A DNA stretch of 64,000 nucleotides from an uncultured Coxiellaceae bacterium (GCA_964555965.1 CAZKUQ010000001.1:35669-99668), one strand, 5' to 3'; shown: positions 23,615 to 54,523, counted from the first letter of the stretch. Program-made: numbers and translations. Notes: generated from the sequence alone by a model not told the origin.

Positions 23615-23621
23615 GGGGTAT

Positions 23622-25405: not shown

Positions 25406-25414
25406 GCATACTTT

Positions 25415-26182: not shown

Positions 26183-26247
26183 ATAAATAATATGAGTTTA
26201 AAAATAGAAAGAATGATTTTAATAAATATGCTCTTAATAGAGACTAT

Positions 26248-27619: not shown

Positions 27620-27642
27620 TTCTAGATAATTAGGAATTCATA

Positions 27643-33590: not shown

Positions 33591-33598
33591 AAAATTTT

Positions 33599-34615: not shown

Positions 34616-34619
34616 AAAC

Positions 34620-37319: not shown

Positions 37320-37334
37320 TTAATAGGGAAAGTT

Positions 37335-37961: not shown

Positions 37962-38620
37962 CCAAATATATTTGGCTATCTCACGAATTAAGTGACGATA
38001 CGCCTGCTTATGGTGGTGGTGAGAGCTTAATTGTCAAATGTGAAAAACAAATTGCTGCTGGTCATAGTTGCAACTCCACTAAACTTACTTTTTCCAATCA
38101 TCTAGGCACACATGTTGATGTGCCGTATCATTTTATTGAATCAGGAAAAAAAATTAGTGATTATAAAATTGAACAGTGGCTATTTCATAAAATAAAACTT
38201 ATCGATATTCAAATAAAACCAGATGAAATTATTACACTAGCAACAATTAAATCTGTTTTAGCTGATATAGATGATGTTGATTTTTTATTAATTAAAACCG
38301 GCTTTGAGGAATATCGCCATTCTGATATTTACTGGCAAAATTCACCTGCGTTTTCAGATGAAATTGCAGCTTTTTTAAAAGAAAATTTTCCATCTATTGC
38401 TGCGATTGGTTTTGATTCAATATCTTTAACAGGTTATCAACATAGAGAATTAGGACGTGAAGCCCATAAAACTTTTTTATCACAAGATATTCGTATTTTT
38501 GAAGACATGTACTTATCGTCAATTACAAGTGATATGCATATCTCGCAAGTGATTGCTATGCCATTGCGTTTTGAAAATGCAGATGGTGCACCTTGTACAA
38601 TGATAGCTTGTGTAGGGTAG
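37958..38620 (+). CDS. Cyclase-family metal hydrolase (kynurenine formamidase-like)
   Basis: HLGTHVDVPYHF matches the HxGTHxDxPxH motif of the putative cyclase family. ATGA overlap with the upstream gene. Confidence 0.6.
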   Translation: MTKYIWLSHELSDDTPAYGGGESLIVKCEKQIAAGHSCNSTKLTFSNHLGTHVDVPYHFIESGKKISDYKIEQWLFHKIKLIDIQIKPDEIITLATIKSVLADIDDVDFLLIKTGFEEYRHSDIYWQNSPAFSDEIAAFLKENFPSIAAIGFDSISLTGYQHRELGREAHKTFLSQDIRIFEDMYLSSITSDMHISQVIAMPLRFENADGAPCTMIACVG

Positions 38621-38629: not shown

Positions 38630-39925
38630 ATGGATAATGAAAGAAGAAAAATATCTCAATTTACACTGATGCTTCAGTCGCAAACGCAATTACCGTTGTG
38701 GTCACTTGCTAATGAGAAAGTTATTTATTCTATAGCGGTGGGAGAAACGCCTATATGGGGTCCAAAAACAAGAATATTGCGCCATATCATGGCTATCGCT
38801 TATAAATTTTATCTCAGTGATTTTTTAATTTTTATTATTGGGTCTATCCAATCTTTTTTCATTTGGTGGAACGTAAAAAAAAATACGTTTAGCAAACAAA
38901 ATAAAATGGCATTCAAAAGAGTATTTGCAGGTTTTGGTGCTTCATCAGAAGAATATTTATATGAAAAATACGTTAATCAGTCACAAGACTTAACATTACG
39001 AATTAATTGGACGAAGCATAAAGGATTATCTGAGTTAGGTTGTCCATCTTTTTTATCAATCCTTTTTATGCTTACTAAAAACTCATTTGGATATACTTCA
39101 AAATTAAAACAAGCACAACAAGAAATTTCAGCAAATAGATTAGAATTTTTAACTGTATGTGCATTAAATATTGCAAATTATGCATTTTATAACTCGTACT
39201 GGAGAATAGCAAAACAGCAAGGAATTCAGGAAGCTGCTTTTGTTACGCCCGATATTTTGTCTGTTGCATGCATTGATGTTGGAATTAATTCAATTTATTT
39301 CCAGCATGGATTGTTAGCACTAAGTATTTTGATACCAAAATTTAAACGTATTGATGTATTAACGCAGGAAGAAGAAAATTATTTAAAAAATTCGTTAAAA
39401 GATGTGCAAATAAATAAAATGATTCATGTAATAAATACTAAAAACACCAAAAATAAGGTTCTTTTAGTGTTATCAATCAATGTATTTCAACAAGAGAGAT
39501 TATTAGCATGCGAATCACTTTTTCAATGGGCTAAAGAAAAAGGACTACAAATTGTGATACGGCCAACGAGTCGCGCAACGAAAGATGATTTGAAAACATT
39601 AAGTACAAATATACCAGAAGCATTAATTGATGATGTCACTGTTCCATTAGAAGAAAGCTTAAAAAAATGGAATCCCAAAATAGTTGCAGCGTGGACTTCC
39701 ACGGGACTCGTAACAGCACTTGAGCATGAATATTTGCCAATTAGTCTGTTTGATCCTTCTGTAAAAGAAGTTTGGTGTAACATGATATATCCATTAAAAG
39801 ATCGTGTTTTATTTTGGCCACGCGATAGATTATTGATTGAATCATCAATGCAATCAGAAGAAAATTACGCTGCGCAGATTTTTAATCTTCTACAGTATCA
39901 AAATCTTATTCTAGAATCTTGTTAA
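38630..39925 (+). CDS. Hypothetical membrane-associated protein, possible GT-B-like transferase
   Basis: 431-aa ORF with one N-terminal hydrophobic segment (FLIFIIGSIQSFFIWW). The C-terminal half alternates beta/alpha-like segments, with FQHG and AAWTSTGLVTALEH. I recognise no family. Confidence 0.3.
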   Translation: MDNERRKISQFTLMLQSQTQLPLWSLANEKVIYSIAVGETPIWGPKTRILRHIMAIAYKFYLSDFLIFIIGSIQSFFIWWNVKKNTFSKQNKMAFKRVFAGFGASSEEYLYEKYVNQSQDLTLRINWTKHKGLSELGCPSFLSILFMLTKNSFGYTSKLKQAQQEISANRLEFLTVCALNIANYAFYNSYWRIAKQQGIQEAAFVTPDILSVACIDVGINSIYFQHGLLALSILIPKFKRIDVLTQEEENYLKNSLKDVQINKMIHVINTKNTKNKVLLVLSINVFQQERLLACESLFQWAKEKGLQIVIRPTSRATKDDLKTLSTNIPEALIDDVTVPLEESLKKWNPKIVAAWTSTGLVTALEHEYLPISLFDPSVKEVWCNMIYPLKDRVLFWPRDRLLIESSMQSEENYAAQIFNLLQYQNLILESC

Positions 39926-40929
39926 TGAAAAAAAAATTCTTGCTATTATTTTATTTTGTGATGACCTATTTAGGTTTTATTAAATTATTTTATTGGTTAA
40001 ATCGTAATAAAAAAATAATTTTAACTTATCATAATATTATTCCCAATCATTTATTTGATGATAGTTGCCACTTGGGTGTATCGCATACTGAATCAGTATT
40101 TAAAGAACAAATAAAATTAATTTATCAGCGATTTGATCGTAATCAATGCCTTATTACTTTTGATGATGGTTATAAAAATCAACTTGAGGTTGCGGCAAAA
40201 ATTTTAAGTGATCATCATCTGCAAGGCATATTTTTTGTATCATTTCAATCGCTGTTATCAGGTCAGACGTTGACAATTGATCGAATTATGATGTGGCTAA
40301 GTTATGTTCCCGCTGGCAATTATCATATGCTAGGAAGTGATATTACTATTAATAATGCGACACGAGATTTAGTTGCAGCAAAGTTATATCAGCAATTAAT
40401 TGACGATATTAAATTATGGGATGTGATAGAAGAAAATTTAAATAACGCATTTCCATTTGATCAATTATCGATTGATGATGAACTTGTAAGATTAAGATTT
40501 AAACCGCTGACAGCGGATGATTTAGAAATACTAAAAAATGATGGCCACTTAGTTGGATCGCACAGCTGGGATCATCGACCACTGGGACGATTATCATTGG
40601 AAGAGCAAAAAGAAGATTTTTCGAAATGTATTGTTCTTGCTAATCAATATTGTAATTCTTGGCTATATAGTTATCCGTTTGGTGGTATTCAGGAAGTCTC
40701 ACCACTTACAACAAAATTATGTGCAGAATCAGGTTTTAGTTCAGCATTCATGAATATGTCGCCATCACCGGCATGGGTTGATGCTGATAGAAATTATACC
40801 TTGCCAAGATTAAGTCTTCCAAATGTAAAAAATAAATATTTATTGGATGCGAAATTATCCGGCTTTGAATCGTTTTGTAAATCAATAGTTAGGGGCATGA
40901 GATCTGAGGACTTATATGATAAAAAATAA
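39925..40929 (+). CDS. Polysaccharide deacetylase (NodB homology domain) with N-terminal TM anchor
   Basis: ITFDDGYKNQ and VGSHSWDHRPL motifs. The ORF track TTG start at 39919 is replaced by ATG 39925 (TAATG junction). Confidence 0.7.
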   Translation: MKKKFLLLFYFVMTYLGFIKLFYWLNRNKKIILTYHNIIPNHLFDDSCHLGVSHTESVFKEQIKLIYQRFDRNQCLITFDDGYKNQLEVAAKILSDHHLQGIFFVSFQSLLSGQTLTIDRIMMWLSYVPAGNYHMLGSDITINNATRDLVAAKLYQQLIDDIKLWDVIEENLNNAFPFDQLSIDDELVRLRFKPLTADDLEILKNDGHLVGSHSWDHRPLGRLSLEEQKEDFSKCIVLANQYCNSWLYSYPFGGIQEVSPLTTKLCAESGFSSAFMNMSPSPAWVDADRNYTLPRLSLPNVKNKYLLDAKLSGFESFCKSIVRGMRSEDLYDKK

Positions 40930-41161
40930 TTATAAGGAATGGTTAATAAGCTGGTTTAAAAAAAACATGGAAATATCTGTAGATGTTGTTCATCGTGATT
41001 TTTTTAAAGAAGGCTGGCTTGATTCATTTAAAACAATTGAATTAATCTCTGAAATAGAAAAAACATTTAAATTATCATTTAGTGATTCTCATTTTACGGA
41101 TGCTAGATTTTCTACCATTGATGGTCTAGCAGAAATTTTAGCTGAAATAAAAAGCAATTAA
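40916..41161 (+). CDS. Acyl/aminoacyl carrier protein-like
   Basis: 81 aa. GWLDSFKTIELISEIEK resembles the DSL/DSF phosphopantetheine attachment helix of ACP/DltC-like carriers. Sits next to an adenylating enzyme gene. Confidence 0.5.
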   Translation: MIKNNYKEWLISWFKKNMEISVDVVHRDFFKEGWLDSFKTIELISEIEKTFKLSFSDSHFTDARFSTIDGLAEILAEIKSN

Positions 41162-41172
41162 AGGAATATCAA

Positions 41173-42144
41173 ATGATTAATCCTCTTCAAAAAAAAGCAA
41201 TCAGCACTTTATTATTTCATTGTGGCAATTTGAATATAGAAGATCGCGCTCTTATTTTGTGCGACTCAAGTACACGACCGATAGCTGAAGCTTTTGTTAA
41301 TGTAGCAAATGAGGCTGATCATCAGATAAAACTGCTGGAAATACCGCCATTATCTAATCATGGTGCAGAACCGCCAGCTGATGCAGTAGATGCAATGCAG
41401 GCATCTACTTTAATACTCAGTCTTTGTAAATATTCATTAGCTCATAGTAAGGCGCGAATAAATGCTGCAAATGCAGGCGCACGTTTTCTTAGCCTACCAT
41501 TATATGATTGGAATCTTTTAGAAGATCAAAGCTTGCATATCGACTTCAAATCGCAAGCTAATTTAGTGCGAAAATTTTCGCAAGCATTTACTGACGGAAA
41601 AACTGTTCGCGTAACAACAGCTGCAGGAACGGATATCACACTTGGTATTACTGACCGGATTGGTAATTATTGTCCTGGATTTGTTGAGCGTCCGGGTGAT
41701 TTAGGTTCCCCACCTGATATCGAAGCAAATGTGTCGCCAATAGAAGATGGTTCAGAAGGAATTATTATTATTGATGGTTCAATTACGCATCCTAATTTTG
41801 GCTTGCTAGAAAAACCGATTGAACTGATCGTGCATAACGGCCGTATTGTTGAATTTCGTGGTAATAAAAATCAAGTTGCTATGCTTAATGAAATGTTTGG
41901 AACATTGGATTCGCCACGAAGAGTGTTAGCTGAATGTGGTGTAGGACTTAATCCTGCAGCGAAGTTAACTGGCATCATGTTAACTGATGAAGGCGCGTTA
42001 GGTTGTATGCATTTTGGTTTTGGTGCTAATCATACTGTTGGTGGTAAAAATAAAGTGGATTTTCATTTGGACTTTGTTTTCCATGATGCAACGCTGCAAG
42101 TAGATGGCCAAACTTTACTTCAATCTGGAATACCTCAATTATGA
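41173..42144 (+). CDS. Aminopeptidase T (M29/COG2309)-like protein
   Basis: The patterns ANVSPIEDGSEG, IIIDGSI, ECGVGLNP and GCMHFGFG resemble the thermophilic-aminopeptidase family. Tentative. Confidence 0.4.
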   Translation: MINPLQKKAISTLLFHCGNLNIEDRALILCDSSTRPIAEAFVNVANEADHQIKLLEIPPLSNHGAEPPADAVDAMQASTLILSLCKYSLAHSKARINAANAGARFLSLPLYDWNLLEDQSLHIDFKSQANLVRKFSQAFTDGKTVRVTTAAGTDITLGITDRIGNYCPGFVERPGDLGSPPDIEANVSPIEDGSEGIIIIDGSITHPNFGLLEKPIELIVHNGRIVEFRGNKNQVAMLNEMFGTLDSPRRVLAECGVGLNPAAKLTGIMLTDEGALGCMHFGFGANHTVGGKNKVDFHLDFVFHDATLQVDGQTLLQSGIPQL

Positions 42145-43658
42145 ACACACAGATCAGATCATTTATTGCAGATTTTGCAAAGTTGGTAGCATATCAACCT
42201 GATAAAATTGCATTATTAGACGGAAATGGAAGAACTGTTACTTATGTTGGATTAGCAAATCAAATTGAATGCGCACAAGCATGGTTAGCAACAATCGGTT
42301 TACAACCAGGCGATACATTAATAGCATTAATGCCAAATGCAATTGAAACAATCATACTTTTTCTCGCATGTTTACGAGGTGGTTACACTTATGCGCCTAT
42401 GCCTTGCACAGCTACGCTTGCAGAAGTAACTCGTTGGAAAAAATTAACTCGAGCAAAATTTTGCATCATAGCAAACTCTGTGAGCACACAAGCACAAGAA
42501 CAAGTGAAGCAGCTAGATTGGCAAATTTATAGTGTTGAAATTGGTATGAAAGACATGTCGTGGCCTGCTAATGGTCATGCACAAGCTATCAGCGGAGGAC
42601 GTTTAGTGATGGCATCCAGTGGCTCAACTGGCGAACCCAAAGCAATGTTGCTAGATGTAGATCGACTCTGGTCGGCCGGTAAGGCATTTCTCCGTTACCA
42701 TCAAATAGAAACAGGCGATATTCGATTTTGGAATTATCTTCCCATGTCTTATCTGGGGGGACTGTTTAATTTAACTTTAATTCCACTCGCTGCAGGCGGC
42801 AGCATTTATGTTGATGAAGCATTTAGCGGTAAAACTTTTTTGATTTTCTGGGCAACGGTAGAACGTTTTAAAATTAATAGTTTGTGGTTAGTTCCAACTA
42901 TTTTGCGTGGATTATTGGCACTATCGAATCGAGTTGGTCAAGTGATGCAACGACCGAATATTAATTTTTGTTTTCTTGGTACTGCTCCTGTTTCACTTGA
43001 AGAGAAACAAAAATTATCACAAATTTTTGGCGTACAACCGCTCGAAAATTACGGATTAAGTGAAACAACTTTTATTAGCAGTGAACATACTCAACATCTT
43101 GCCTTACGCAGACAAAGTAGTGTTGGAACAATCATGCCAGATGTTTCACTCAAGTTAGTCCCTATAGAGCAAGAAATTTCTGCGACTGAGATTTGGGTTC
43201 GTACACCATATATGATGCTTGGTTATTTAGATCAACAAGGAAATATCGAATTGCCAGTTGATGTAGATGGTTATTTACCGACAGGAGATTGTGGTCAAGT
43301 AGTCGATGGTCAATTACAGTTATCAGGACGGCGAAGAGATATCATCAAGAAAGGTGGAATTTTAATTGCTTTACGTGAAATTGAGCTAGTAGCAGAGTCT
43401 TATCCTGAAGTAGCAGAAGCAATAGCAGTGAAAGTTGACCATAGTTTTTATGGTGAGAGTAGCGTTCTTTATGTTCGAGCGCATCAGCCGATTTCTAATT
43501 CAGAACAATTTATTTCAAGATTAGGAAAATGGTTACATGAGCAATTAGTTCGACATAAGTGGCCTGAGAACATCGTATATTGCGATGAATTTCCTCGTAC
43601 ATCGAGCGGTAAGATAAAGAAACATCTTTTAGGCGCAAGGAGTGAGGCGCATGCATAG
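42141..43658 (+). CDS. AMP-dependent synthetase/ligase (adenylation enzyme)
   Basis: SSGSTGEPKA (A3 core), YGLSET, TGD and the C-terminal SSGKIKK lysine motif. ATGA overlap with the upstream gene. Confidence 0.8.
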   Translation: MNTQIRSFIADFAKLVAYQPDKIALLDGNGRTVTYVGLANQIECAQAWLATIGLQPGDTLIALMPNAIETIILFLACLRGGYTYAPMPCTATLAEVTRWKKLTRAKFCIIANSVSTQAQEQVKQLDWQIYSVEIGMKDMSWPANGHAQAISGGRLVMASSGSTGEPKAMLLDVDRLWSAGKAFLRYHQIETGDIRFWNYLPMSYLGGLFNLTLIPLAAGGSIYVDEAFSGKTFLIFWATVERFKINSLWLVPTILRGLLALSNRVGQVMQRPNINFCFLGTAPVSLEEKQKLSQIFGVQPLENYGLSETTFISSEHTQHLALRRQSSVGTIMPDVSLKLVPIEQEISATEIWVRTPYMMLGYLDQQGNIELPVDVDGYLPTGDCGQVVDGQLQLSGRRRDIIKKGGILIALREIELVAESYPEVAEAIAVKVDHSFYGESSVLYVRAHQPISNSEQFISRLGKWLHEQLVRHKWPENIVYCDEFPRTSSGKIKKHLLGARSEAHA

Positions 43659-44883
43659 TGAAGCGAGATCAATCAGCTATACGGAAATGCCACTTAGTCA
43701 TAAAGTGCAAGAAATAGCTGGTGCGTTGTCTATTTATATTAACCAATTAGTTTATGATCTCAAACGCATGCAGCGTGACATTATTACTTTGTCATTAGGC
43801 GAATCTTTTTTTGAAATTCCTTATTTTGATTTTCGACAATTAGATTTTAATCGGGGTTATCATTATTCAGATACGCGCGGGATTCCTGCTTTGCGTGAAA
43901 AAATAGCTCATTATTATAATAATCGCTATCATGCCCGTGTTTCTGCAGACGATGTGATGATTTCTGCTGGTTCTAAGGCAATTATTTATATTGCTATGCA
44001 AGCACTTATTAATCCAGGCGAAGAAGTCATCATACATGAACCTGCTTGGTTAAGTTATAAAGAGCAGGCACATTTAGTTGGTGCAACTGTTCGATTTATT
44101 CCATTCGATCATTCATGTGATCAATTCAGTGAACATTTTAGTGATAAAACTCGAATGCTGATACTGAATAATCCTAACAATCCTGCTGGACGTACTTATA
44201 GCTGTGAAGAATTACTTGATATTTATTATCAATGTCGACGCCGTAATATTTGTTTATTAATTGATGAAGCCTATAGTGATTTTGTTTTGGATAATTCATT
44301 TTTTTCAATGACAAATCTAATACCAAATCTTGATGGCATCATTATTACAAATTCATTGTCAAAAAATATGGGAATGTCAGGTTGGCGCATTGGTTATGCC
44401 CTCGCAGAAAAAAAAGTGTTAGATGCAATGCTCAAACTTAATCAACATTTAATCACATGCGCACCAACTATTCTTCAACTTTATCTGGCCGAATATTTTG
44501 ATAACATTCTTGGATATACTTTATCGCAAGTAAAAGAAGTGGTAGAAAAGAGAAAACGAATTGCAAAACGCATGGATGAATTAGGTATATCCTATTTGCC
44601 AGGTAGTACCACTTTTTATTTTTTTATAAAGACCGGTGATTATGCTGGAAATATACATGATCTTGCGCTTTATTTATTACTCGAAAAAGGCATTTCAGTT
44701 GTTCCTGGATCAGCTTATGGTAATACGACAAGCAATTTTTTACGTATGTCAATTGGTACTGAATCTGAAGAAAGAATTGATCAAGCATTATTAATATTAC
44801 GTGATACTTTATCAGCTCATCCAATAGATAGTGTTCGTACGCATGCTGAATTAGCTAGATTAAATTTACCAGAATTTGAATAA
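43651..44883 (+). CDS. Class I/II PLP-dependent aminotransferase
   Basis: NNPNNPAG and SLSKNMGMSGWRIGY (PLP lysine). ATG 43651 is preceded by AAGGAG; the ORF track start is GTG 43642. Confidence 0.75.
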   Translation: MHSEARSISYTEMPLSHKVQEIAGALSIYINQLVYDLKRMQRDIITLSLGESFFEIPYFDFRQLDFNRGYHYSDTRGIPALREKIAHYYNNRYHARVSADDVMISAGSKAIIYIAMQALINPGEEVIIHEPAWLSYKEQAHLVGATVRFIPFDHSCDQFSEHFSDKTRMLILNNPNNPAGRTYSCEELLDIYYQCRRRNICLLIDEAYSDFVLDNSFFSMTNLIPNLDGIIITNSLSKNMGMSGWRIGYALAEKKVLDAMLKLNQHLITCAPTILQLYLAEYFDNILGYTLSQVKEVVEKRKRIAKRMDELGISYLPGSTTFYFFIKTGDYAGNIHDLALYLLLEKGISVVPGSAYGNTTSNFLRMSIGTESEERIDQALLILRDTLSAHPIDSVRTHAELARLNLPEFE

Positions 44884-44896
44884 GTAAATCTTAAAT

Positions 44897-45757
44897 ATGA
44901 ATGGCGTAGAAGTAAAAAAGACTTATCCAGCTGATTTCGAAAAAATTTATCCTATTTTACAAAATTTTAATTCTCCGTATTCCAAAGAGGACTGGAAGAA
45001 AATTTTTTTATATAGTTGGGATGGAGCTGAAGATTACGTAGGTTTTCATTTAGAAAACAAAAGTGAAGTGGTTGGATTTATGGGATTAATATTTTCATGC
45101 AGGAACAAAGATAATGCGCAATATAAATTTTGCAACATTACTTCATTAATCGTTAAAGATAATTATCGAGCGGCTACTATATTACTGATACGAAAATTGA
45201 AATCATTTAACGATACGATTTTTACAGGTTTAAGTCCTATTCTCGAATCTTACCGCCTTTTAAGTATCGTGGGTTTTACTCCTTATGAAAATTATTACAA
45301 GATAATACCAACTATTACTTATTTATTTGGTAAAAAGAATAAAGTGAATATTTATGAATTGCCTATGTTACTGGATAAAGTTGATGCTGAAAACAAGCGT
45401 ATTGTAATTGATCATGCCAATCTAAAATGTAATAGCATATTGTTTGATTTCGATGGTCATTATTGTTTATTAATCTATAAAATTACAAAACAAAATCACT
45501 ATTACATGCCTGTCAAAAAAGTGCATATTCTTTATATTAGCAATTTGACTTTATTTAATGAGAAAAAAAGTTCTATTTTACGTATTTTTAATCGCCGATT
45601 TGGATTCTTAACGGCAATGTACATCGATAATCGTTTTTTAACAGAGAAAAATTTTATTTTGTCTTTAACCAGAAAAATATCACCGCCACGAATAAGTTTT
45701 AATCCTTATCATCAAGTTGATATTGATGAATTGTATTCTGAGGCTGTGCTATTGTAG
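44897..45757 (+). CDS. Hypothetical protein with GNAT-like N-terminal domain
   Basis: VVGFMGLIF...ITSLIVKDNYRAATILLIRKL resembles the GNAT beta4-alpha3 region. Weak. Confidence 0.35.
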   Translation: MNGVEVKKTYPADFEKIYPILQNFNSPYSKEDWKKIFLYSWDGAEDYVGFHLENKSEVVGFMGLIFSCRNKDNAQYKFCNITSLIVKDNYRAATILLIRKLKSFNDTIFTGLSPILESYRLLSIVGFTPYENYYKIIPTITYLFGKKNKVNIYELPMLLDKVDAENKRIVIDHANLKCNSILFDFDGHYCLLIYKITKQNHYYMPVKKVHILYISNLTLFNEKKSSILRIFNRRFGFLTAMYIDNRFLTEKNFILSLTRKISPPRISFNPYHQVDIDELYSEAVLL

Positions 45758-45811: not shown

Positions 45812-46909
45812 ATGAATAAGCAACAATATGAACGTTTAGCTGGTATTTCTTTTAAATCGAATGAAGGTATTCTTGAGTTACAAAATCGTTCAAAAGATAA
45901 AAAAGAATGTAAAATTTTACTTATTGGTGGTGCTGGTTATATTGGATCTGTCGTCACTAAACATTTATTAGAATGTGACTATAAAGTGCGTTGTTTAGAT
46001 TTATTATTATATGAAAATAATGAGTGTGTCATCCCTAGTTTAATGAATGAAAATTATGAATTTATCTATGGCGATTTTACAAATCCCAAAACAGTAGATC
46101 ACGCTTTAGTTGGCATAACAGATGTTATTATTTTAGGAGGTTTAGTAGGCGATCCGATTACGAAGAAATATCCTGAAATTTCACAGATAATTAACCATTC
46201 TGGTATGTTAAATTTAATCCATTTGCTAAATGGAAAAGGTCTCAATAAAGTAATTTTTATTTCAACATGTTCCAACTATGGAATAGTCGCGAATAATAAT
46301 TTAGCAGACGAAAATTGTGAATTATCGCCTCTTTCATTATATGCAAAAGCAAAAGTGGCAGTTGAAGAACATTTGAGTTCCTTGCGTGGAAAAATAGACT
46401 ATAGTCCAACCGTACTTCGTTTTGCTACGGCTTTTGGCCTTTCTCCCAGAATGCGATTTGATTTAACAGTCAATCAATTTACACGTGAACTATATTCAGG
46501 TGAAGAAGTATTGGTATACGATCCTGAAACTTGGCGACCATATTGCCATGTAAAAGATTTTTCTTTAGCTTTACAGCGCGTACTGGAGTCACCTTTAGAG
46601 TTAGTTAATTTTGAAGTATTTAATGCTGGAGGTGATAAGAATAATTTTACCAAAAAAATGGTTGTCGATACGGTAAAAAAATTTATTCCACAGGCAAAAA
46701 TACGATTTCAAGAGAAGGGTTCCGATCCTCGAGATTATCGTGTTAGTTTTAAAAAAATACGCGAGGTACTTCATTTCGAGCCAAAATATAGTGTTTCTGA
46801 TGGAATAGCAGAAATTATTAAAGCATTAGATCAAAAAATATTTAACAATGTTTCGCAGCGGATTAATTTTTACGAAAACAATCAAATTAATTATGCAAGT
46901 AACCTATGA
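45812..46909 (+). CDS. legB: NAD-dependent nucleotide-sugar 4,6-dehydratase/epimerase (LegB-like)
   Basis: ILLIGGAGYIGS and YAKAK motifs. Heads a block containing all the other legionaminic acid genes. Confidence 0.55.
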   Translation: MNKQQYERLAGISFKSNEGILELQNRSKDKKECKILLIGGAGYIGSVVTKHLLECDYKVRCLDLLLYENNECVIPSLMNENYEFIYGDFTNPKTVDHALVGITDVIILGGLVGDPITKKYPEISQIINHSGMLNLIHLLNGKGLNKVIFISTCSNYGIVANNNLADENCELSPLSLYAKAKVAVEEHLSSLRGKIDYSPTVLRFATAFGLSPRMRFDLTVNQFTRELYSGEEVLVYDPETWRPYCHVKDFSLALQRVLESPLELVNFEVFNAGGDKNNFTKKMVVDTVKKFIPQAKIRFQEKGSDPRDYRVSFKKIREVLHFEPKYSVSDGIAEIIKALDQKIFNNVSQRINFYENNQINYASNL

Positions 46910-48096
46910 TGTCATTATTAAATGAAATAGTTCATAAAATTAAAACTGTACTTTCATATTCTCCTCATTTTATTGCTCTGCATGAACCATACTTTGATGG
47001 GAATGAATGGGAATATGTTAAAGAATGTTTGGATACTGGGTGGGTATCATCCGTTGGCAAATTTGTTGATCGATTCGAGCAAGATTTAGCAAATTTCACC
47101 GGTGCAAAATATGCTGTTGCAACTGTCAACGGAACTGCTGCATTGCATATTTGTTACTTACTTGCTGGAGTCAAAACTGGAAATGAAGTGTTAATTCCTA
47201 CATTATCATTTGTAGCCACAGCTAATGCTCTTTCTTATTGCGGTGCTATTCCGCACTTTATTGAAGCTGAAGATAAATTTCTAGGAATAGATGTTAATTT
47301 GTTGGATCAATACCTAAACGACATCACGGAAATAAAAAATAATGTGTGCATTAATAAATTAACAGGTCGTCATATTCAAGCTTTATGTGTTATGCATACT
47401 TTAGGTCATCCAGTTGATCTTGATCGCATTGTTGAACTTTGTAAAAAATATCATCTCACTTTAATTGAAGATGCTGCAGAAGCTTTAGGTTCTTATTATA
47501 AAGGAATACATGTTGGTCATCGCGGATTAGTAGGAGCATTAAGTTTTAATGGAAACAAAATTATTACAACTGGTGGTGGTGGAGCAATTTTAACAAATGA
47601 TGCTAACATTGCTAAACAAGCCAAACACATGACAACAACTGCAAAATTACCACATCCTTGGTTATTTGAGCATGATAAAGTTGGCTATAATTATCGTTTA
47701 CCAAATATCAATGCAGCATTAGGATGTGCCCAACTCGAACAATTGCCAAAATTTTTAAATACAAAACGGTTACTTGCTAAAAAATATAAAAATATTTTTC
47801 TAAATTTACAAGGCCTAAGATTTATTCAAGAACCAGATTACGCAAAAAGTAATTATTGGCTAAATGCTTTATTACTTGATTCGTCTTTTGAGGATTCTAG
47901 AGATTCATTGTTAGAATTACTGAATAAAAGTAATGTCATGTCGAGACCGATTTGGAATTTATTACATACCTTGCCAATGTATAAAGACTCGCCTCGAATG
48001 ACATTATCTGTTGCAGAAGCTTTGCATAAACGTTTAATTAAAATTCCTAGCAGTGTCATATTAGGAACGACACATTCAAAAAGTGAAGCATCATGA
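46906..48096 (+). CDS. legC: DegT-family aminotransferase (LegC-like)
   Basis: HEPYFDGNEWEYVKECLDTGWVSSVGKFVDRFE N-terminus is typical of LegC-type enzymes. FNGNKIITTGGGG carries the PLP lysine. ATGA overlap. Confidence 0.75.
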   Translation: MMSLLNEIVHKIKTVLSYSPHFIALHEPYFDGNEWEYVKECLDTGWVSSVGKFVDRFEQDLANFTGAKYAVATVNGTAALHICYLLAGVKTGNEVLIPTLSFVATANALSYCGAIPHFIEAEDKFLGIDVNLLDQYLNDITEIKNNVCINKLTGRHIQALCVMHTLGHPVDLDRIVELCKKYHLTLIEDAAEALGSYYKGIHVGHRGLVGALSFNGNKIITTGGGGAILTNDANIAKQAKHMTTTAKLPHPWLFEHDKVGYNYRLPNINAALGCAQLEQLPKFLNTKRLLAKKYKNIFLNLQGLRFIQEPDYAKSNYWLNALLLDSSFEDSRDSLLELLNKSNVMSRPIWNLLHTLPMYKDSPRMTLSVAEALHKRLIKIPSSVILGTTHSKSEAS

Positions 48097-49010
48097 TGGA
48101 ATGTTTGATTATAGGATATGGCTCAATTGGTAAACGACATGCGCAAATTCTAAAAAATTTGGGATGTATGATTAGCATAGTCACCTCCCAAAAAATAGAT
48201 GACCAACCTTGTTATCTTAGTATCAAAGAAGCATTTAAAAAAAAATCATTTGATTATGTAATAATTGCGAATCCAACTTATTTGCATCACAGTGCGTTAG
48301 TTCAGCTAATTGAATGTGATTATCAAGGATTTGTACTAGTTGAAAAACCATTATTTTCTCAAATTGAACATTTACCAAAAAATAAAATAAAAAAAATTCT
48401 CGTGGCTTATAATTTACGTTTTCATGAATTACTCATCCAAACAAAAAAATTAATTGAAAATCAAAAAATAATTACATTTTCTGCTTATGTTGGACAATAT
48501 TTACCGACCTGGAGAAAAGGAACTGATTATAGAAACTGTTATTCTGCAAAAAAAGAACAAGGTGGTGGCGTACTTCGAGATTTAAGTCATGAACTAGATT
48601 ATGCATTATGGTTTTGTGGGCCATGTTTAAATGTGACAGCAATTGGTGGACATTTTAGTGATCTAGAAATTAATAGTGATGACACTTATTCTATCATGAT
48701 GAAATGTACCCAATGCCCTATTGTTAATATCCAGATTAATTATTTAGATCGATGTACAAGACGTGAAATTACGATCAACACGGAACAACATACTATCTTG
48801 ATTGATTTTATAAAGGGAACATTAAGTATAGACGGAGAAATAAAAACTCAGTATTCGGGTGAGATGAATCAAACCTATATCAAACAGCATCAAGCGGTTA
48901 TGAATAACAATTTTGATGGTTTTTGTCATTATTCTGATGGGTTATCTGTCATGAAATTAATTGATACTGTAGAAAAGGCTTCGACTGCTCAAACATGGAT
49001 GAATTTATGA
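48093..49010 (+). CDS. Gfo/Idh/MocA-like oxidoreductase (PtmF-like)
   Basis: CLIIGYGSIGKRHA Rossmann N-terminus and a VEKP motif. The position mirrors ptmF of Campylobacter Leg loci. Confidence 0.55.
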   Translation: MMECLIIGYGSIGKRHAQILKNLGCMISIVTSQKIDDQPCYLSIKEAFKKKSFDYVIIANPTYLHHSALVQLIECDYQGFVLVEKPLFSQIEHLPKNKIKKILVAYNLRFHELLIQTKKLIENQKIITFSAYVGQYLPTWRKGTDYRNCYSAKKEQGGGVLRDLSHELDYALWFCGPCLNVTAIGGHFSDLEINSDDTYSIMMKCTQCPIVNIQINYLDRCTRREITINTEQHTILIDFIKGTLSIDGEIKTQYSGEMNQTYIKQHQAVMNNNFDGFCHYSDGLSVMKLIDTVEKASTAQTWMNL

Positions 49011-49711
49011 AAGTAGTATGTACGATTTGCGCACGTGGTGGTTCAACAGGTGTAAAAAATAAAAATATTCGTAGCTTACGAGGCAAACCTCTTATTGCGC
49101 ATAGTATTATTCAAGCCAAAAAAACTAATTTATTTCCATTAATTGTGGTAAGCAGTGATTCGCCAAAAATTCGTGCTATTTCGAGTAAATGGGGAGCAAA
49201 TTATGTTATTCATAGACCTGCAGAACTAGCAACGGCGAGCATTTCAAAACTTCCTGCGATACAACATGCGGTTTTAGAAACTGAACGCTTTTATAATGAA
49301 AAATTTGATTACGTTATTGATCTGGATGCAACTGCACCATTGCGAACAATTGATGATATTGTAACGTCATTCAATATGTTGATTGAACATCCAGATGCAG
49401 ATAATCTGGTGACTGCTTGTCCTGCTAGAAAATCTCCTTATTTTAATATGCTTGAAGTAGATTCAAACGGCTTTGCATGTTTAGTAAAAAAATCCGAAAA
49501 GCTAATTCATAGACGTCAAGATACGCCTTCATGTTATGACATGAATGCTTCTATTTATATATGGAAACGAAAAACATTATTTGATTCGAAAAGTGTTATT
49601 ACGGATCGAACGCTTCTATATGTCATGCCTGAAGAACGTTCTATTGATATTGATACTATGTTAGATTGGACTTTCGTAAAGTTATTGGCAAAAAGTAGAA
49701 AGGATTTGTAA
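49007..49711 (+). CDS. legF: N-acylneuraminate-type cytidylyltransferase (CMP-legionaminic acid synthetase, LegF/NeuA-like)
   Basis: CTICARGGSTGVKNKNIR and LDATAPLR motifs. ATGA overlap at ATG 49007. Confidence 0.75.
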   Translation: MKVVCTICARGGSTGVKNKNIRSLRGKPLIAHSIIQAKKTNLFPLIVVSSDSPKIRAISSKWGANYVIHRPAELATASISKLPAIQHAVLETERFYNEKFDYVIDLDATAPLRTIDDIVTSFNMLIEHPDADNLVTACPARKSPYFNMLEVDSNGFACLVKKSEKLIHRRQDTPSCYDMNASIYIWKRKTLFDSKSVITDRTLLYVMPEERSIDIDTMLDWTFVKLLAKSRKDL

Positions 49712-50532
49712 TGACTAGGTATCAAAATTTATTTAGATTAGATGATAAAGTTGCTGTGGTGACAGGAGGCGCAGGGATTTTAGGTGCCGAATTTTGCAAT
49801 GCACTTTGTGATTTAGGTGCAACCGTCGCTTGTTTTGATATTCATGAACAATCACTGCATAAAGTTGTGACGGAATTGCAAAATAAATATGGGAAAGATA
49901 AAGCGGCAGGTTTTTTATGTGATGTTTCTGATACTCAATCTGTTAATCAAGCTGTCAATGACGTTATTAAATGTTTTTCAAGAATCGATATTTTATTAAA
50001 TAACGCAGCAACCAAAACTAACGATATTAATAATTTTTTTACACCTTTTTCAGATTTTTCGTTGGATATTTGGCGCGAAGTGATGGCAGTTAATTTAGAT
50101 GGTATGTTTTTAATGGCACAAGCAGTTGGAAAACACATGATTGAAAGACGTCAGGGTACAATTGCGCAAACTGCATCAATATACAGTTTAATGGCGCCGG
50201 ACAATCGTATTTATGAAGGATCTCATTATTTAGGCCGTGAAATAAATACACCTGCAGTTTATACGGCTTCCAAAGCGGGTGTCATTGGGCTAACTAAACA
50301 TTTAGCGACATTATGGGCTGATTATGGAATTCGTGTTAATTCATTATGCCCAGGCGGTGTATCGAGTGGTCAAAATGATGTATTTGATAAAAAATATTCT
50401 GCCAGAGTTCCCATGGGTCGAATGGCACAAAAAATAGATATTGTTGGACCGATGATGTTTCTAGTCAGCGATGCATCGCAATACATGACTGGACAAGTGC
50501 TTTATGCAGATGGTGGATTATCTGCATGGTAA
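49711..50532 (+). CDS. Short-chain dehydrogenase (PtmA-like)
   Basis: VAVVTGGAGILG, NNAA, YTASK and PGGV motifs. Confidence 0.65.
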   Translation: MTRYQNLFRLDDKVAVVTGGAGILGAEFCNALCDLGATVACFDIHEQSLHKVVTELQNKYGKDKAAGFLCDVSDTQSVNQAVNDVIKCFSRIDILLNNAATKTNDINNFFTPFSDFSLDIWREVMAVNLDGMFLMAQAVGKHMIERRQGTIAQTASIYSLMAPDNRIYEGSHYLGREINTPAVYTASKAGVIGLTKHLATLWADYGIRVNSLCPGGVSSGQNDVFDKKYSARVPMGRMAQKIDIVGPMMFLVSDASQYMTGQVLYADGGLSAW

Positions 50533-51701
50533 ATATAAAAAAAAGAAAAATAGCTGTTGTTACCGGAGCGCGAGCAGAATATGGATTGCTTCATTGGCTC
50601 ATGCGAGAAATTCAAGAAGATCCTGAACTCGAGTTGCAAGTCATTGCAACAGGTATGCATTTATCGCCTGAATTTGGATTAACTTATCAATTTATTGAAG
50701 CGGATGGATTTACGATTGATGCGAAAGTAGAAATGCTATTATCAAGTGATACTGCTATAGGCACAGCAAAATCAATCGGTTTAGGTATTATTGGATTTAC
50801 CGATGCGCTTGCTAAACTCATCCCTGATATGATTGTTTTACTAGGCGATCGATTCGAAGCATTAGCGGTTGCACAAGCTGCTCTCGTTCAAAAAATTCCA
50901 TTGGCTCATATTCATGGTGGAGAACTTTCAGAAGGCGCGATAGATGATGCTATTCGGCATTCGATTACTAAAATGTCTCATTTACACTTTGTTGCTGCAG
51001 AACCTTATCGAAAAAGAGTGATTCAATTGGGTGAAAATCCTGAAAGAGTATTTAACGTAGGTGCACCAGGTTTAGAACGAATTGAAAGAACAAAACTATT
51101 GAAGCGTAAAGAATGGGAAAAAAAAGTAGGCTTTTCTTTAGGAAAAATAAATTTTTTAGTTACTTATCTTCCTTCTACTCTGGATACAAAAGACGATATT
51201 ATTACACTGGAAGCATTATTTAACGCGCTTGATAAATTTCCAGAAGCTAAAATTATTTTCACAAAAGCTAATTCTGATGAATTAGGAAGATTGATTAATG
51301 CGAAAATAGATGAATATGTATCGCATAATGCAAAACGAGCTGCTTCGTATGTTACTTTAGGCGATTTAAATTATTTAAGCTTATTACAATTTGTCGATGT
51401 TGTTATTGGAAATTCTTCGAGTGGTTTAATCGAAGTACCTTATTTTAAAAAGCCAACCATCAATATTGGCAACCGTCAGTCCAATCGCTTAAGAGCTTCC
51501 TCAGTGATTGATTGTTCTGGAAATAAAAATGAAATTGTAGATGCAATCAAAAAAGCTTTGTCGAATGAATTTAAAAAAACATTAGAAAATACGATTTCAT
51601 CTTATGATCAAGATAAAACTGCAAATAAAATTAAAACAATTATTAAAAATATTGATCTCGAAAAAATTCTAATAAAACGTTTTAATGATTTGTCTATGTG
51701 A
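50526..51701 (+). CDS. legG: Hydrolysing NDP-2,4-diacetamido-sugar/GlcNAc 2-epimerase (NeuC/LegG)
   Basis: KIAVVTGARAEYGLL...ATGMHLSPEFG...LGDRFE...HIHGGE motifs of the NeuC family. Confidence 0.8.
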   Translation: MVNIKKRKIAVVTGARAEYGLLHWLMREIQEDPELELQVIATGMHLSPEFGLTYQFIEADGFTIDAKVEMLLSSDTAIGTAKSIGLGIIGFTDALAKLIPDMIVLLGDRFEALAVAQAALVQKIPLAHIHGGELSEGAIDDAIRHSITKMSHLHFVAAEPYRKRVIQLGENPERVFNVGAPGLERIERTKLLKRKEWEKKVGFSLGKINFLVTYLPSTLDTKDDIITLEALFNALDKFPEAKIIFTKANSDELGRLINAKIDEYVSHNAKRAASYVTLGDLNYLSLLQFVDVVIGNSSSGLIEVPYFKKPTINIGNRQSNRLRASSVIDCSGNKNEIVDAIKKALSNEFKKTLENTISSYDQDKTANKIKTIIKNIDLEKILIKRFNDLSM

Positions 51702-51717
51702 AAAGGTGTTTCAAAAA

Positions 51718-52797
51718 ATGAAAACTTTTATTATTGCTGAAGCAGGTGTCAATCATAATGGATCGTTAGAATTAGCAAGGCGCCTTGTTGATCTTGCTAA
51801 GAAAGCAGGTGCAGATGCAGTTAAGTTTCAAACTTTTCATGCAGAAGATTTAGTATGTTTGAGTGCGCCAAAAGCCGATTATCAAAAAGCGTCAACTTCC
51901 ACTAATGAATCACAATATGAAATGCTTAAGTCGCTTGAACTTAGTGAACAGGATCAAGTGAAATTACATCAATATTGTAAAGAACAAGAAATAATATTTT
52001 TATCTTCGCCATTTGATATGCGCGGTGTGAACTTTCTCTGTCAAACACTAGCATTATCTCTTATTAAAATTCCTTCAGGAGAAATTACTAATCTCCCATT
52101 ATTGTTAAAAGTCGCACAAACTGGTAAGCCAGTTATTTTATCGACAGGTATGAGCTCATTAGGTGAAATTGAAGAAGCCTTAGCTATTTTAGCATTTGGA
52201 TATTCTCATCCTTTAGAAGATATACATTTTTCAAAATATTCATATAATGAAATTTATTATTCAGATGCGGGACAAAAAATACTACAAGAAAAAGTATCAT
52301 TATTACATTGTACTTCTGAATACCCAGCGCCATTTGATGAAATAAATTTACGAGCAATTCAAACGTTACATCAGGCATTTGGATTACCTGTAGGATATTC
52401 GGATCACACATTAGGCATTGCTGTCGCCATTGCGGCTGTTGCATGTGGCGCTAAGATTATTGAGAAACATTTTACTTTAGATAAATCTCTGCCAGGCCCT
52501 GATCATCAGGCATCACTAGAGCCGCAAGATTTGACTGCGATGGTATCAGGTATTCGAGAAGTTGAACTAGCGCTTGGAAATGGCAAAAAACTTCCAACCA
52601 CAAGCGAACTTAAAAATCGATTAATTGCTCGCAAGAGTCTAGTAAGTTTAGAAAAAATTAATAAAGGCGAGTTTTTTTCTGAAAAAAATATAGGTTGCAA
52701 GAGACCAGGAAATGGGATTTCACCAATTAATTTTTACAATTATCAAGGCAAATGTGCTGAACGTAATTATGAAAAGGATGAGTTAATAGGAAATTAA
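51718..52797 (+). CDS. legI: N-acetylneuraminate-synthase family enzyme (legionaminic acid synthase, LegI/NeuB)
   Basis: FIIAEAGVNHNGSLELA, KFQTF, SSPFD, YSDHTLG and a C-terminal SAF domain. Start moved from 51685 to ATG 51718. Confidence 0.8.
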   Translation: MKTFIIAEAGVNHNGSLELARRLVDLAKKAGADAVKFQTFHAEDLVCLSAPKADYQKASTSTNESQYEMLKSLELSEQDQVKLHQYCKEQEIIFLSSPFDMRGVNFLCQTLALSLIKIPSGEITNLPLLLKVAQTGKPVILSTGMSSLGEIEEALAILAFGYSHPLEDIHFSKYSYNEIYYSDAGQKILQEKVSLLHCTSEYPAPFDEINLRAIQTLHQAFGLPVGYSDHTLGIAVAIAAVACGAKIIEKHFTLDKSLPGPDHQASLEPQDLTAMVSGIREVELALGNGKKLPTTSELKNRLIARKSLVSLEKINKGEFFSEKNIGCKRPGNGISPINFYNYQGKCAERNYEKDELIGN

Positions 52798-53442
52798 ATG
52801 GATAAGCCATCTGTTTTTATTTTAGGCGCGGGCGGGCATGCTAAAGTTTTATTAGACTGTCTCAGTTTAAATAAAAATATCACCATTCGAGGAATATTGG
52901 ATATAAACCAGCTATTGCATGGAAAATCAATTTTAGGTTTCCCAGTGATAGGTAGTGAAGATGAGATATTAAAAAATTATTTTCTTTCTAGTATTCAACT
53001 CGTGAACGGCATAGGATCAGTCAAAACAACCAGTCAACGAGAAAATATTTTTAATAAATTTAAAAATATTGGTTATCATTTTTTGAATGTAATACATCCT
53101 ACATCTTATGTTGGACAAGAAGTTATTTTAGGTGAAGGTGTTCAAGTCATGGCTGGAAGCACGATTCAAGCCGGTAGTCGTATTGGCGATAATGTTATTG
53201 TTAATACGCATGCTGTAGTTGATCATGATTGCGTCATTGAAGATCATGTTCATTTAGCACCAGGAGTTGTATGCTGCGGGAATGTGACTATTGGTAGAGG
53301 AACACATGTGGGGTCGGGTGCCGTTATTTTACAAGGAATTAATATTGGACCTAATTGTTTAATTGCAGCAGGAGCAGTGGTAACTCGTGATGTTGTTGCT
53401 GTCAGTAAAGTAGCAGGTATCCCCGCTAGAATAATGGAGTAA
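52798..53442 (+). CDS. legH: NeuD/PglD-family hexapeptide N-acetyltransferase (LegH-like)
   Basis: VFILGAGGHAKVLLD Rossmann-like N-terminus followed by LbH repeats (IGDNVIVNTHAVVDHDCVIEDHVHLAPG). Confidence 0.75.
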   Translation: MDKPSVFILGAGGHAKVLLDCLSLNKNITIRGILDINQLLHGKSILGFPVIGSEDEILKNYFLSSIQLVNGIGSVKTTSQRENIFNKFKNIGYHFLNVIHPTSYVGQEVILGEGVQVMAGSTIQAGSRIGDNVIVNTHAVVDHDCVIEDHVHLAPGVVCCGNVTIGRGTHVGSGAVILQGINIGPNCLIAAGAVVTRDVVAVSKVAGIPARIME

Positions 53443-53446
53443 AAAA

Positions 53447-54523
53447 ATGGACAAGGATGCAAAACAAACTTGGCATAATGTGTTAATTGATATCAAAACT
53501 TCTGTGCTTGCAGCTATCAATCAAATGAATGATAGCGCATGGCGTATCTTAATCGTAGTTGATAGTGATATGCATTTGTTGGGCGTCATTACTGACGGTG
53601 ATATTAGGCGTCATTTACTTAAGCAAGAAAGTTTAGAAGTACCTGTTGAACGGATTATGAAAAAAAATCCCATCACGGCTTTAGCATCAGAAAATCAAGA
53701 TCAACTATTAATGAAATTGCATTCGATGGGAATTTTACATTTACCCATTGTTGATGAAGAAAATCGTATCGTTGGTTTAGAAACGTTTGATAGCCTTTTT
53801 GCAAAAAAATCACGAGATAATTGGGTGATTTTTATGGCAGGAGGTATAGGGAAACGTTTACATCCTTTAACAATTGATTGTCCAAAACCTTTATTGAAGT
53901 TAGGCGATAAACCAATTTCAGAAATTTTGTTAGAAAATTTTGTTCGGTGTGGCTTCAAGCATTTTTATTTTTCAGTTAATTATAAAGCTGACATGATTCG
54001 TGATCACTTCGGATCAGGTGATCGATGGGGTGTGGAAATAAATTATATTGAAGAAGATGCAGCATTAGGAACAGCAGGAAGTTTAAGTCTTTTACCGGCT
54101 ATTCCAGCAAAGCCTTTTTTTGTTATTAATGCAGACATTTTAACGAATGTTAATTTTGATCATATACTTGATTTTCATCAAGAACAGAAAAATAAAATAT
54201 ATGCCACTCTCTGTGTGAGATTGCATCAAAATACCATTCCATTTGGTGTAGTACATATCAATGAATCAGATCATCGATTAGTTAATATAGAGGAAAAACC
54301 TAAAAAAGATTATTTTGTTAATGCAGGCATTTATATTTTAGAACCAACTTCATTGCGTCATTTATCATTTAATACCTATTGCGATATGCCAAATTTTTTA
54401 ACTAATCTCACCAAACAAAATTTACCTGTAGCTACTTTTCCTATCCGCGAATATTGGCTGGATATAGGCCATCACGATAATTTGGTGCAGGCAGCAACCG
54501 ATTATTTAGAAGTTTTTTCATGA
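53447..54523 (+). CDS. ptmE: CBS-pair plus sugar-1-phosphate nucleotidyltransferase (PtmE-like)
   Basis: N-terminal tandem CBS-like segments (LGVITDGDIRR, HLPIVDEENRIVG), then FMAGGIGKRLHPLT, the NTP-transferase G-loop. Confidence 0.7.
   Translation: MDKDAKQTWHNVLIDIKTSVLAAINQMNDSAWRILIVVDSDMHLLGVITDGDIRRHLLKQESLEVPVERIMKKNPITALASENQDQLLMKLHSMGILHLPIVDEENRIVGLETFDSLFAKKSRDNWVIFMAGGIGKRLHPLTIDCPKPLLKLGDKPISEILLENFVRCGFKHFYFSVNYKADMIRDHFGSGDRWGVEINYIEEDAALGTAGSLSLLPAIPAKPFFVINADILTNVNFDHILDFHQEQKNKIYATLCVRLHQNTIPFGVVHINESDHRLVNIEEKPKKDYFVNAGIYILEPTSLRHLSFNTYCDMPNFLTNLTKQNLPVATFPIREYWLDIGHHDNLVQAATDYLEVFS

Follow-up and report, generated by a model that had tools for sequence, protein, structure and literature searches.

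A six-gene cassette in a Coxiellaceae glycan locus, probably for carrier-protein-dependent N-acylation of an amino sugar

We analysed a stretch of 64,000 nucleotides (nt) from an uncultured Coxiellaceae bacterium (GCA_964555965.1 CAZKUQ010000001.1:35669-99668; in the following, the window), in which nearly all genes from about 11.8 kb on lie on the plus strand and belong to glycan biosynthesis. Our subject is a set of six open reading frames (ORFs) that follow each other in the same direction on the plus strand at 39919-45757. They encode a membrane-anchored NodB (CE4)-type hydrolase (39919..40929; 336 aa, Polysacc_deac_1), an acyl/peptidyl carrier protein (40916..41161; 81 aa, PP-binding, with Ser37 in the motif LDSF), a NicX/M29-fold metalloprotein of family PF26233 (41173..42144; 323 aa), an adenylase of the ANL superfamily (42141..43658; 505 aa, AMP-binding and AMP-binding_C), a class I (AspAT-like) pyridoxal phosphate (PLP) aminotransferase (43642..44883; 413 aa, Aminotran_1_2), and an orphan protein without family match, for which a tandem-GNAT fold is predicted (44897..45757; 286 aa). 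Judged from sequence comparison, these six genes probably form one cassette for the carrier-protein-dependent N-acylation of an amino sugar, with a precursor of legionaminic acid as the most probable acceptor. An initial annotation of this DNA had already listed the genes as consecutive; our ORF calls and translations confirmed their positions on the plus strand and contained all the motifs that it had quoted.

Overlaps of 4-17 nt occur at four of the six cassette junctions, namely between the upstream gene and the NodB gene (7 nt), the NodB and carrier genes (14 nt), the metalloprotein and adenylase genes (4 nt), and the adenylase and aminotransferase genes (17 nt), and the remaining two junctions are gaps of 11 nt (carrier/metalloprotein) and 13 nt (aminotransferase/orphan). 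Proteins with identical sequences are recorded as ACD_46C00181G0035-0041 on a 129-kb contig of an uncultured groundwater bacterium. Four further loci (L004, L005, L007, and L015) keep the order of the six genes, with identities of 49-83%; in L006, where identities are 35-56%, the genes are rearranged and spread over both strands. As the same six genes recur in other loci, their grouping is not due to chance. A promoter and terminator scan of the region from 31 to 47 kb was uninformative, with fewer sites than in shuffled sequence. The G+C content of the window is roughly 33%, and the highest value among its 2-kb bins falls on 42001-44000, which holds the adenylase gene and the start of the aminotransferase gene (0.385 versus about 0.33).

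The comparison with other genomes covered the neighbourhoods of six metalloprotein homologues, 27 loci from a species-representative genome scan, and a locus of Paenibacillus durus (L037). The genes for the metalloprotein, the adenylase, and the aminotransferase, with the metalloprotein gene first, form a co-linear trio in 21 of the 29 distinct genome loci, as well as in the window and in P. durus. In two further loci, the trio is adjacent in another order (rearranged in L006; fused and on the opposite strand in L018), and the remaining exceptions are contig ends or frameshifted genes of metagenome-assembled genomes (MAGs). A carrier gene lies near the trio in most loci. According to the record labels, the hosts belong to about eleven phyla: Pseudomonadota, Cyanobacteriota (Melainabacteria, Prochlorococcus), Actinomycetota, Elusimicrobiota, Eremiobacterota, Bdellovibrionota, Marinimicrobia, Omnitrophota, Chloroflexota, Bacillota, and Planctomycetota. 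Metalloprotein, adenylase, aminotransferase, and carrier hence constitute a constant and widespread four-gene core, present in about 30 loci and mostly within clusters for legionaminic or pseudaminic acid, that has no earlier characterisation. The initial annotation was right to see one functional module around the carrier, but it overlooked this core as a widely conserved unit.

The core is accompanied by one of two partner sets, which were never mixed in these loci. The first set, found in ten loci, consists of a NodB hydrolase and an orphan protein. The orphan belongs to the 286-aa family in the window, L004, L005, L006, L007, L015, and the truncated L008, and is an unrelated protein of 349-365 or 289 aa in Cohnella (L029), P. 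durus, and an Omnitrophota MAG (L023). In P. durus, a culturable organism with a complete genome (CP009288, locus at 5903511-5925037), the core and carrier are joined by an orphan of 349 aa and by a NodB protein that is soluble. The second set, found in 14 distinct loci, consists of a DUF4910/DUF2172/HTH_47 protein and an Antibiotic_NAT (AAC(3)-like) protein, often together with an S-adenosylmethionine (SAM) methyltransferase; the DUF4910/DUF2172/HTH_47 protein is confined to this set and occurs neither in the window nor in any NodB-type cassette. In at least 10 of the 14 loci, the NAT gene lies directly upstream of the carrier gene. The loci are related by descent, and the counts are therefore not independent trials, though the pattern spans very distant lineages. 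Each pair combines a metallohydrolase-like protein with a protein resembling aminoglycoside acetyltransferases (AAC(3)-like by Pfam, Eis-like by fold). The core looks like a portable acyl-donor unit, with the hydrolase and the transferase as exchangeable partners that would be specific for the acceptor. The idea put forward in the initial annotation, that an amine is first freed and then acylated again, thereby gained comparative evidence.

The carrier protein was recognised by the Pfam family PP-binding (E 3.2e-7; 30.9 bits versus a cut-off of 20.8). Its top NCBIfam match is DltC, but all NCBIfam matches lie under their cut-offs, including the DltC models PRK05087 (31.5 bits, cut-off 68) and TIGR01688 (24.2 bits, cut-off 52.35). 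Ser37, the predicted phosphopantetheine site, is invariant in all 20 carriers of related cassettes, as befits a carrier with a modifiable serine.

The adenylase matches AMP-binding (E 9e-47) and has the C-terminal domain AMP-binding_C. Its closest relatives in NCBIfam and the PDB are malonyl- and oxalyl-CoA synthetases, FACS, and MenE, and its best 25 NCBIfam matches are acyl- or aryl-CoA ligases throughout. The motifs A3, A5, A7, A8, and A10 are conserved. Motif A4 has the family-specific, invariant form PxSYLGGxFN, which contains no aspartate or other acidic residue, and residues 195-224 of the window protein likewise lack any Asp or Glu for the binding of an alpha-ammonium group. Because of its nearest named relatives and of an A4 motif without acidic residue, we assign the adenylase by sequence to the acyl-CoA-synthetase type and not to the DltA or non-ribosomal peptide synthetase type. 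We propose that it loads the carrier. The lack of an acidic residue in A4 makes direct loading of an amino acid, one of the two options named in the initial annotation, the less likely reading. The similarity to malonyl- and oxalyl-CoA synthetases was not accepted as proof of a dicarboxylate substrate, as the acyl-pocket motif A4 differs completely.

The aminotransferase was assigned to class I/II by the initial annotation on account of the motif SLSKNMGMSGW, and the Pfam match (Aminotran_1_2, E 1.6e-61) bears this out, as does the top PDB match, the AspAT of Thermotoga (1o4s, E 2.4e-51). SLSKNMG with the PLP lysine, NNPNNPAG, and DEAYSDF are conserved across 21 family members, and the carboxylate-binding arginine of FLRMS is present in the window protein, which hence carries the residues of class I aspartate/aromatic aminotransferases (PLP lysine, Asn-Pro-x-Gly, Asp-x-x-Tyr, and Arg). 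All NCBIfam equivalog models scored it far under their cut-offs, the best with 236 bits versus 550. In L018, from an Elusimicrobia MAG, a single 910-aa ORF (6905-9634, minus strand) fuses an adenylase (aa 23-505) to an aminotransferase (aa 533-906). As the adenylase is not of the amino acid type, the aminotransferase is always present, and the two are fused in one case, our best guess is that a keto acid or another carboxylic acid is loaded and acquires its amine by transamination.

A Dlt-like order of events is an unlikely alternative, in which the aminotransferase would first make a free, possibly unusual L-amino acid from a keto acid, the adenylase would load that amino acid, the metalloprotein would act as a hydrolase that edits aminoacyl thioesters or amides, and the GNAT-fold protein would transfer the aminoacyl group. 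DltC as the top family match of the carrier fits this order, and the aminotransferase retains the arginine for the alpha-carboxylate and the PLP residues typical of enzymes acting on free amino acids. The fusion in L018 is equally compatible with making a compound and then activating it, and a free alpha-amine on the substrate would go well with an aminopeptidase-like fold. The named and structural relatives of the adenylase and the absence of Asp and Glu from PxSYLGGxFN and from residues 195-224 speak against it, however, and a dedicated aminotransferase would be needless for common amino acids.

The metalloprotein has 611 homologues at E<=1e-5. The initial annotation had described it as M29 aminopeptidase-like, which holds at the level of the fold, since a Foldseek search with its AlphaFold2 model (pLDDT 93) found M29 aminopeptidases with TM scores of about 0.68. 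The closest structure, however, is NicX (TM 0.85), which is also the best solved relative by sequence; the crocagin proteins CgnB/E reached 0.53. The M29 family PF02073 matched only the C-terminal half and stayed under its cut-off (20.5 bits versus 27), and searches with the family profile and with a distant paralogue reached no M29 structure by sequence but only NicX, besides spurious matches to ubiquitin. M29 peptidases exceed the metalloprotein in length by about 90 residues, and what it shares with NicX and with the M29 aminopeptidases AmpS, PepS, and AmpT is the fold. E184, E191, D201, E254, E273, H280, and D300 are invariant in the family, H298 is nearly so, and the cysteines C17, C85, and C167 are invariant as well. 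E184/E191, E254, H280, D300, and H298 would fit the two-metal Glu/Glu/His/His/Asp site of M29 enzymes.

NicX binds its iron by His265, Ser302, His318, and Asp320, all of which are essential (PMC7910607). These residues align with Glu254, Gly282, His298, and Asp300 of the metalloprotein; Glu254 and Gly282 are invariant in 20 family members, and the His-x-Asp motif is shared with NicX. As two of the four iron ligands (His265 and Ser302) are thus replaced, a NicX-type Fe(II) dioxygenase was ruled out. Distant plasmid paralogues (25-31% identity) lie in catabolic or peptidase surroundings, among amidohydrolases and peptidases, which gives a weak hint of hydrolase chemistry. Lineages such as Elusimicrobia and Omnitrophota, in which the cassette occurs, are largely anaerobic. 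On account of these hosts and of the ligand set, oxygenase chemistry appears less plausible than hydrolysis or transfer with an amide or thioester as substrate.

The metalloprotein could in principle be the true transferase, with an aminopeptidase site that catalyses aminolysis, so that the sugar amine takes over the acyl group of the carrier thioester; the partner, GNAT-fold or AAC(3)-like, would then be an ordinary acetyl-CoA enzyme that caps the new amine, resulting in an N-acetyl-aminoacyl group. Many aminoacyl substituents of bacterial glycans are N-acetylated. Such an exchange of roles would agree with the constancy of the metalloprotein, which is together with the aminotransferase among the most conserved parts while the GNAT or NAT partner varies, and with its three invariant cysteines. 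In addition, Campylobacter jejuni 11168 makes its di-O-methylglyceroyl modification with Cj1295 switched on and the neighbouring N-acetyltransferase gene Cj1296/7 switched off (Table 1, PMC3068675). We nevertheless consider it improbable, as an acyltransferase with M29/NicX fold would be without precedent, the position of the NAT gene directly upstream of the carrier gene suggests that the NAT protein uses the carrier, and the distant paralogues lie among amidohydrolases and peptidases.

The hydrolase at the start of the cassette had been annotated as a NodB deacetylase anchored by a transmembrane helix, and the NodB family and the anchor were supported by a match to Polysacc_deac_1 well above the cut-off (E 7.6e-12; 45.7 bits versus 23.1), by a single N-terminal hydrophobic helix at residues 7-27 (FLLLFYFVMTYLGFIKLFYWL) that is kept in orthologues, and by intact metal motifs. 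In an alignment with PgdA from Streptococcus pneumoniae, TFDDG falls on the catalytic Asp pair and HSWDH on the two metal-binding His, so that CE4 motif 1 (TFDD, with the base and the metal Asp) and motif 2 (H(S/T)xxH, with the metal His pair) are both present. Neither these two motifs nor the N-terminal hydrophobic segment vary across seven orthologues, and an insertion of about 90 residues separates motif 1 from motif 2. Related soluble NodB genes lie beside the core in Paenibacillus, Cohnella, and the Omnitrophota MAG. We propose, from sequence, that the hydrolase is a de-N-acetylase that frees the acceptor amine. A second, more canonical NodB-type deacetylase of 259 aa (Polysacc_deac_1, 2e-25) is encoded at 61165-61944, amid glycosyltransferases at the far end of the locus.

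The 286-aa protein has no Pfam or NCBIfam match even at E<=5, and only 32 homologues were found among 5.8 billion proteins, each at least 44% identical. Its AlphaFold2 model (pLDDT 90) has a tandem-GNAT fold, and Foldseek retrieved Eis-like (aminoglycoside) acetyltransferases, N-myristoyltransferases, and VipF with E values down to 5e-10 and TMq up to 0.61. The description as GNAT-like in the initial annotation is thus supported by the fold of the predicted structure, whereas in sequence the relationship is invisible. In cassettes of the Legionellales type, the protein is always accompanied by the NodB gene and the core. With regard to the modelled fold, we propose that it is an N-acyltransferase taking the acyl group from the carrier.

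The sugar context points to the likely acceptor. Genes resembling LegB and LegC begin 54 nt after the cassette and open a legionaminic-acid-type pathway, recognised by family searches, at 45812..54523 on the plus strand. It comprises a LegC family aminotransferase (540 bits, cut-off 420) 1.1 kb 3' of the cassette, a NeuD/PglB-type acetyltransferase (224 bits), NeuB, a hydrolysing 2-epimerase, CTP_transf_3, GFO, and SDR proteins, and a CBS-nucleotidyltransferase. The acceptor sugar is likely to come from this pathway. Like the window, L004 and the unrelated Cohnella locus have the cassette embedded in a legionaminic acid cluster of the CBS-nucleotidyltransferase type, and L008 contains part of such a set (NeuC, NeuB, a PglD-like acetyltransferase, and a nucleotidyltransferase). 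Eleven loci have NeuB within 10 kb and 14 have a DegT aminotransferase; in L002, L024, and L028, no other gene separates NeuB from the metalloprotein gene. Nonulosonic acid clusters make up the majority of the loci, which supports the earlier placement of the module inside a glycan locus.

If the six proteins act together, the adenylase would activate a small carboxylic acid and load it as a thioester onto the phosphopantetheine of carrier Ser37. The aminotransferase would act on the same small molecule, most likely by converting an oxo group into an amine, and would thereby give an amino-bearing acyl group; this conversion could immediately precede loading, take place on the carrier, or follow the transfer. 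NodB would strip the resident N-acetyl group, which in a nonulosonic acid would be the N5 acetyl inherited from GlcNAc, and the tandem-GNAT orphan would acylate the freed amine with the carrier as donor. The metalloprotein, with its Glu/His/His/Asp site, would belong to the acyl-donor unit and would presumably act on an amide or thioester, for instance to unmask the acyl group, open a ring in it, or edit it. A more far-reaching version is possible, and we offer it tentatively: the core might build a hitherto undescribed, keto-acid-derived and amine-bearing acyl substituent on legionaminic or pseudaminic acids, N-methylated where the SAM methyltransferase is present, and the metalloenzyme might catalyse a reaction new for the NicX/M29 fold on a carrier-bound or sugar-bound intermediate.

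Several observations weigh against the proposed cassette function. In motif 3 of NodB, which reads SYP(F/Y)GG, a serine takes the place of the arginine of RxPY, and the conserved His of the LxH motif 5 is replaced by a conserved L-x-R-(L/I)-(S/D)-L; as the motif-3 Arg and the motif-5 His are missing, deacetylase activity is not assured, and the membrane anchor leaves the topology of the protein unfixed. The loop of the 286-aa protein that should bind the CoA pyrophosphate reads Y-R-A-A-T instead of the canonical R/Q-x-x-G-x-G/A, and from its model this protein could equally be an acetyl-CoA enzyme or inactive. The orphans of three NodB-type cassettes are unrelated to each other in sequence by hhalign and BLASTP. 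Family scans of the window ORFs found no phosphopantetheinyl transferase, and no adenylase-carrier fusion occurs among the best 120 adenylase homologues. The role given to the metalloprotein is a guess. A search for a known glycan structure among the cassette-carrying organisms found none. Leg5GluNMe7Ac of Clostridium botulinum would represent a possible product class; the species-level scan gave no Clostridium locus, and this sugar serves as an illustration, not as evidence.

The P. durus locus adds a further difficulty, as the genes for its core, carrier, orphan, and NodB protein are flanked by a histidine kinase gene and a GGDEF gene, with no sugar genes close by. Together with L005 and L006, which lack a NeuB gene within 10 kb, and with peptidoglycan being the classical substrate of NodB enzymes, it would fit a cassette that merely travels with glycan loci and, rather than decorating an O-antigen or a nonulosonic acid, produces a small molecule in free form or modifies a different polymer of the envelope, for example peptidoglycan. 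We regard this as very improbable, as nonulosonic acid clusters make up most loci and NeuB abuts the metalloprotein gene in three of them, the cassette of the window overlaps a transferase-like gene upstream and lies 54 nt before the LegB/LegC-like genes, and the embedding in a legionaminic acid cluster is repeated in the unrelated Cohnella.

For the proposed exchange of an N-acyl group, the closest described case is Cj1295 of C. jejuni, a protein of 435 aa with an aminopeptidase-like domain and family members in Bradyrhizobium, which is genetically required for replacing the N5-acetyl group of pseudaminic acid by di-O-methylglyceroyl to give Pse5(2,3-di-O-methylglyceroyl)7Ac (PMC3068675). The authors proposed that Cj1295 removes the N5-acetyl group (PMC3068675). 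As in the cassette, a hydrolase-like protein and an N-acetyltransferase gene occur together in the nonulosonic acid locus Cj1295-Cj1299, where N5-acetyl is replaced (PMC3068675). The DUF4910/DUF2172/HTH_47 and Antibiotic_NAT pair of the second partner set fits this account, a likeness drawn by description and not by sequence. The window differs from the Cj1295 module (PIRSF015244), as it has NodB and the tandem-GNAT orphan in place of DUF4910 and Antibiotic_NAT, and the glyceroyl group of C. jejuni carries no amine. The Cj1295-Cj1299 locus also holds a carrier protein gene. C. jejuni is not known to have a NicX/M29-fold protein, this adenylase, or this aminotransferase.

The initial annotation had also compared the logic of adenylase and carrier with that of DltA/DltC and of the tetronate acylation genes RfbK-N of Vibrio cholerae O1; a kinship beyond this general logic was not supported. 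The cassette shares with DltABCD, the system that D-alanylates teichoic acids, the combination of an adenylase with a small carrier, DltC being the best-scoring named family of the latter, but the DltC models remain under their cut-offs, the adenylase is not DltA-like, and no window ORF that was scanned matched MBOAT (DltB) or DltD. The acceptor of DltABCD is moreover a hydroxyl group outside the membrane, in contrast to the sugar amine proposed here. RfbK-N and the Acp-CaiC-FabG-LuxE-LuxC cassettes of Aeromonas and of enterobacterial flagellin islands combine a carrier with an AMP-ligase and are thought to supply a non-acetyl N-acyl group (PMC7874193; PMC4875605). Like the cassette, they place these two proteins within a glycan locus; unlike it, they have LuxC/LuxE- and FabG-type genes and no aminotransferase, NicX/M29-fold protein, or deacetylase. 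Neither LuxC nor LuxE was matched by the six cassette genes or their neighbours, and no FabG-type gene lies within the cassette. In the butirosin pathway (BtrI/J/K/O/V/H/G), a carrier-tethered acyl group is modified by a PLP enzyme and moved to an amino-sugar amine, and a masking group is hydrolysed off. Its enzymes, among them the ATP-grasp ligase BtrJ, the decarboxylase BtrK, and the gamma-glutamyl cyclotransferase BtrG, have no known homology to the cassette, and the pathway is an analogy of logic only.

A full-text literature search surfaced no paper on the gene set, only the work on Cj1295 and descriptions of Lux-type cassettes. Carrier-protein-dependent glycan decoration is already known, whereas the gene composition of the cassette is new to the literature found. 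N-substituents other than acetyl, whether on nonulosonic acids or on amino sugars, shape serotype, phage receptors, and immune recognition, and their genes are mostly unknown. The cassette, with its four-gene acyl-donor unit and two alternative acceptor-side pairs, is a defined portable gene set that can be recognised in genomes of about eleven phyla. It gives the unexplained Cj1295-type proteins a concrete biochemical setting and suggests that the NicX/M29 fold has an activity not yet described. As it occurs in culturable strains of Paenibacillus, Cohnella, and Bradyrhizobium, its chemistry is directly testable.

Several neighbouring genes deserve mention. Directly before the NodB gene, 38630-39925 encodes a 431-aa protein with a weak match to polysialyltransferases (PF07388, E 0.0014, below the cut-off), whose stop codon overlaps the NodB start and which is 56% conserved in L004. 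By this sequence match, it is a candidate for the CMP-sugar-dependent transferase of the modified sugar. From locus to locus, the transferase-like genes that precede NodB are unrelated and therefore give no clue to the acceptor.

Further upstream, the region 32059-38620 holds a third sugar-acid-like cassette with an HpcH/HpaI aldolase, a KdsB-like cytidylyltransferase (259 bits, cut-off 255), a GFO oxidoreductase, a FabG-like SDR protein, an AroB-related 'sugar phosphate phospholyase' (TIGR04425, 506 bits versus 400), a 2-hydroxyacid dehydrogenase, a GmhA-like SIS protein, and a cyclase/arylformamidase-like protein. Its product may be an unusual CMP-activated ulosonic acid, and parts of it (aldolase and cytidylyltransferase) are found beside the acylation core in L004 and L009. 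The window also has a Kdo-like cassette.

A pseudaminic acid pathway with PseB-, PseC-, and PseF-like genes and PseI (498 bits) occupies 20062-28695, followed by a LIC12162-family transferase (28722-30563, 380 bits). Together with the legionaminic pathway at 45812-54523, this is an unusually rich nonulosonic acid gene set for one operon-like array. Two sets of WbuX (N-acetyl sugar amidotransferase), HisH-like, and HisF/WbuZ-like genes (16418-18958 and 23622-26182) suggest two acetamidino modifications in one locus. At the head of the locus (2470-5135), a NusG/RfaH-like gene precedes a WbpM/PglF-like dehydratase of 705 aa, and its position there fits RfaH-type antitermination of a long operon.

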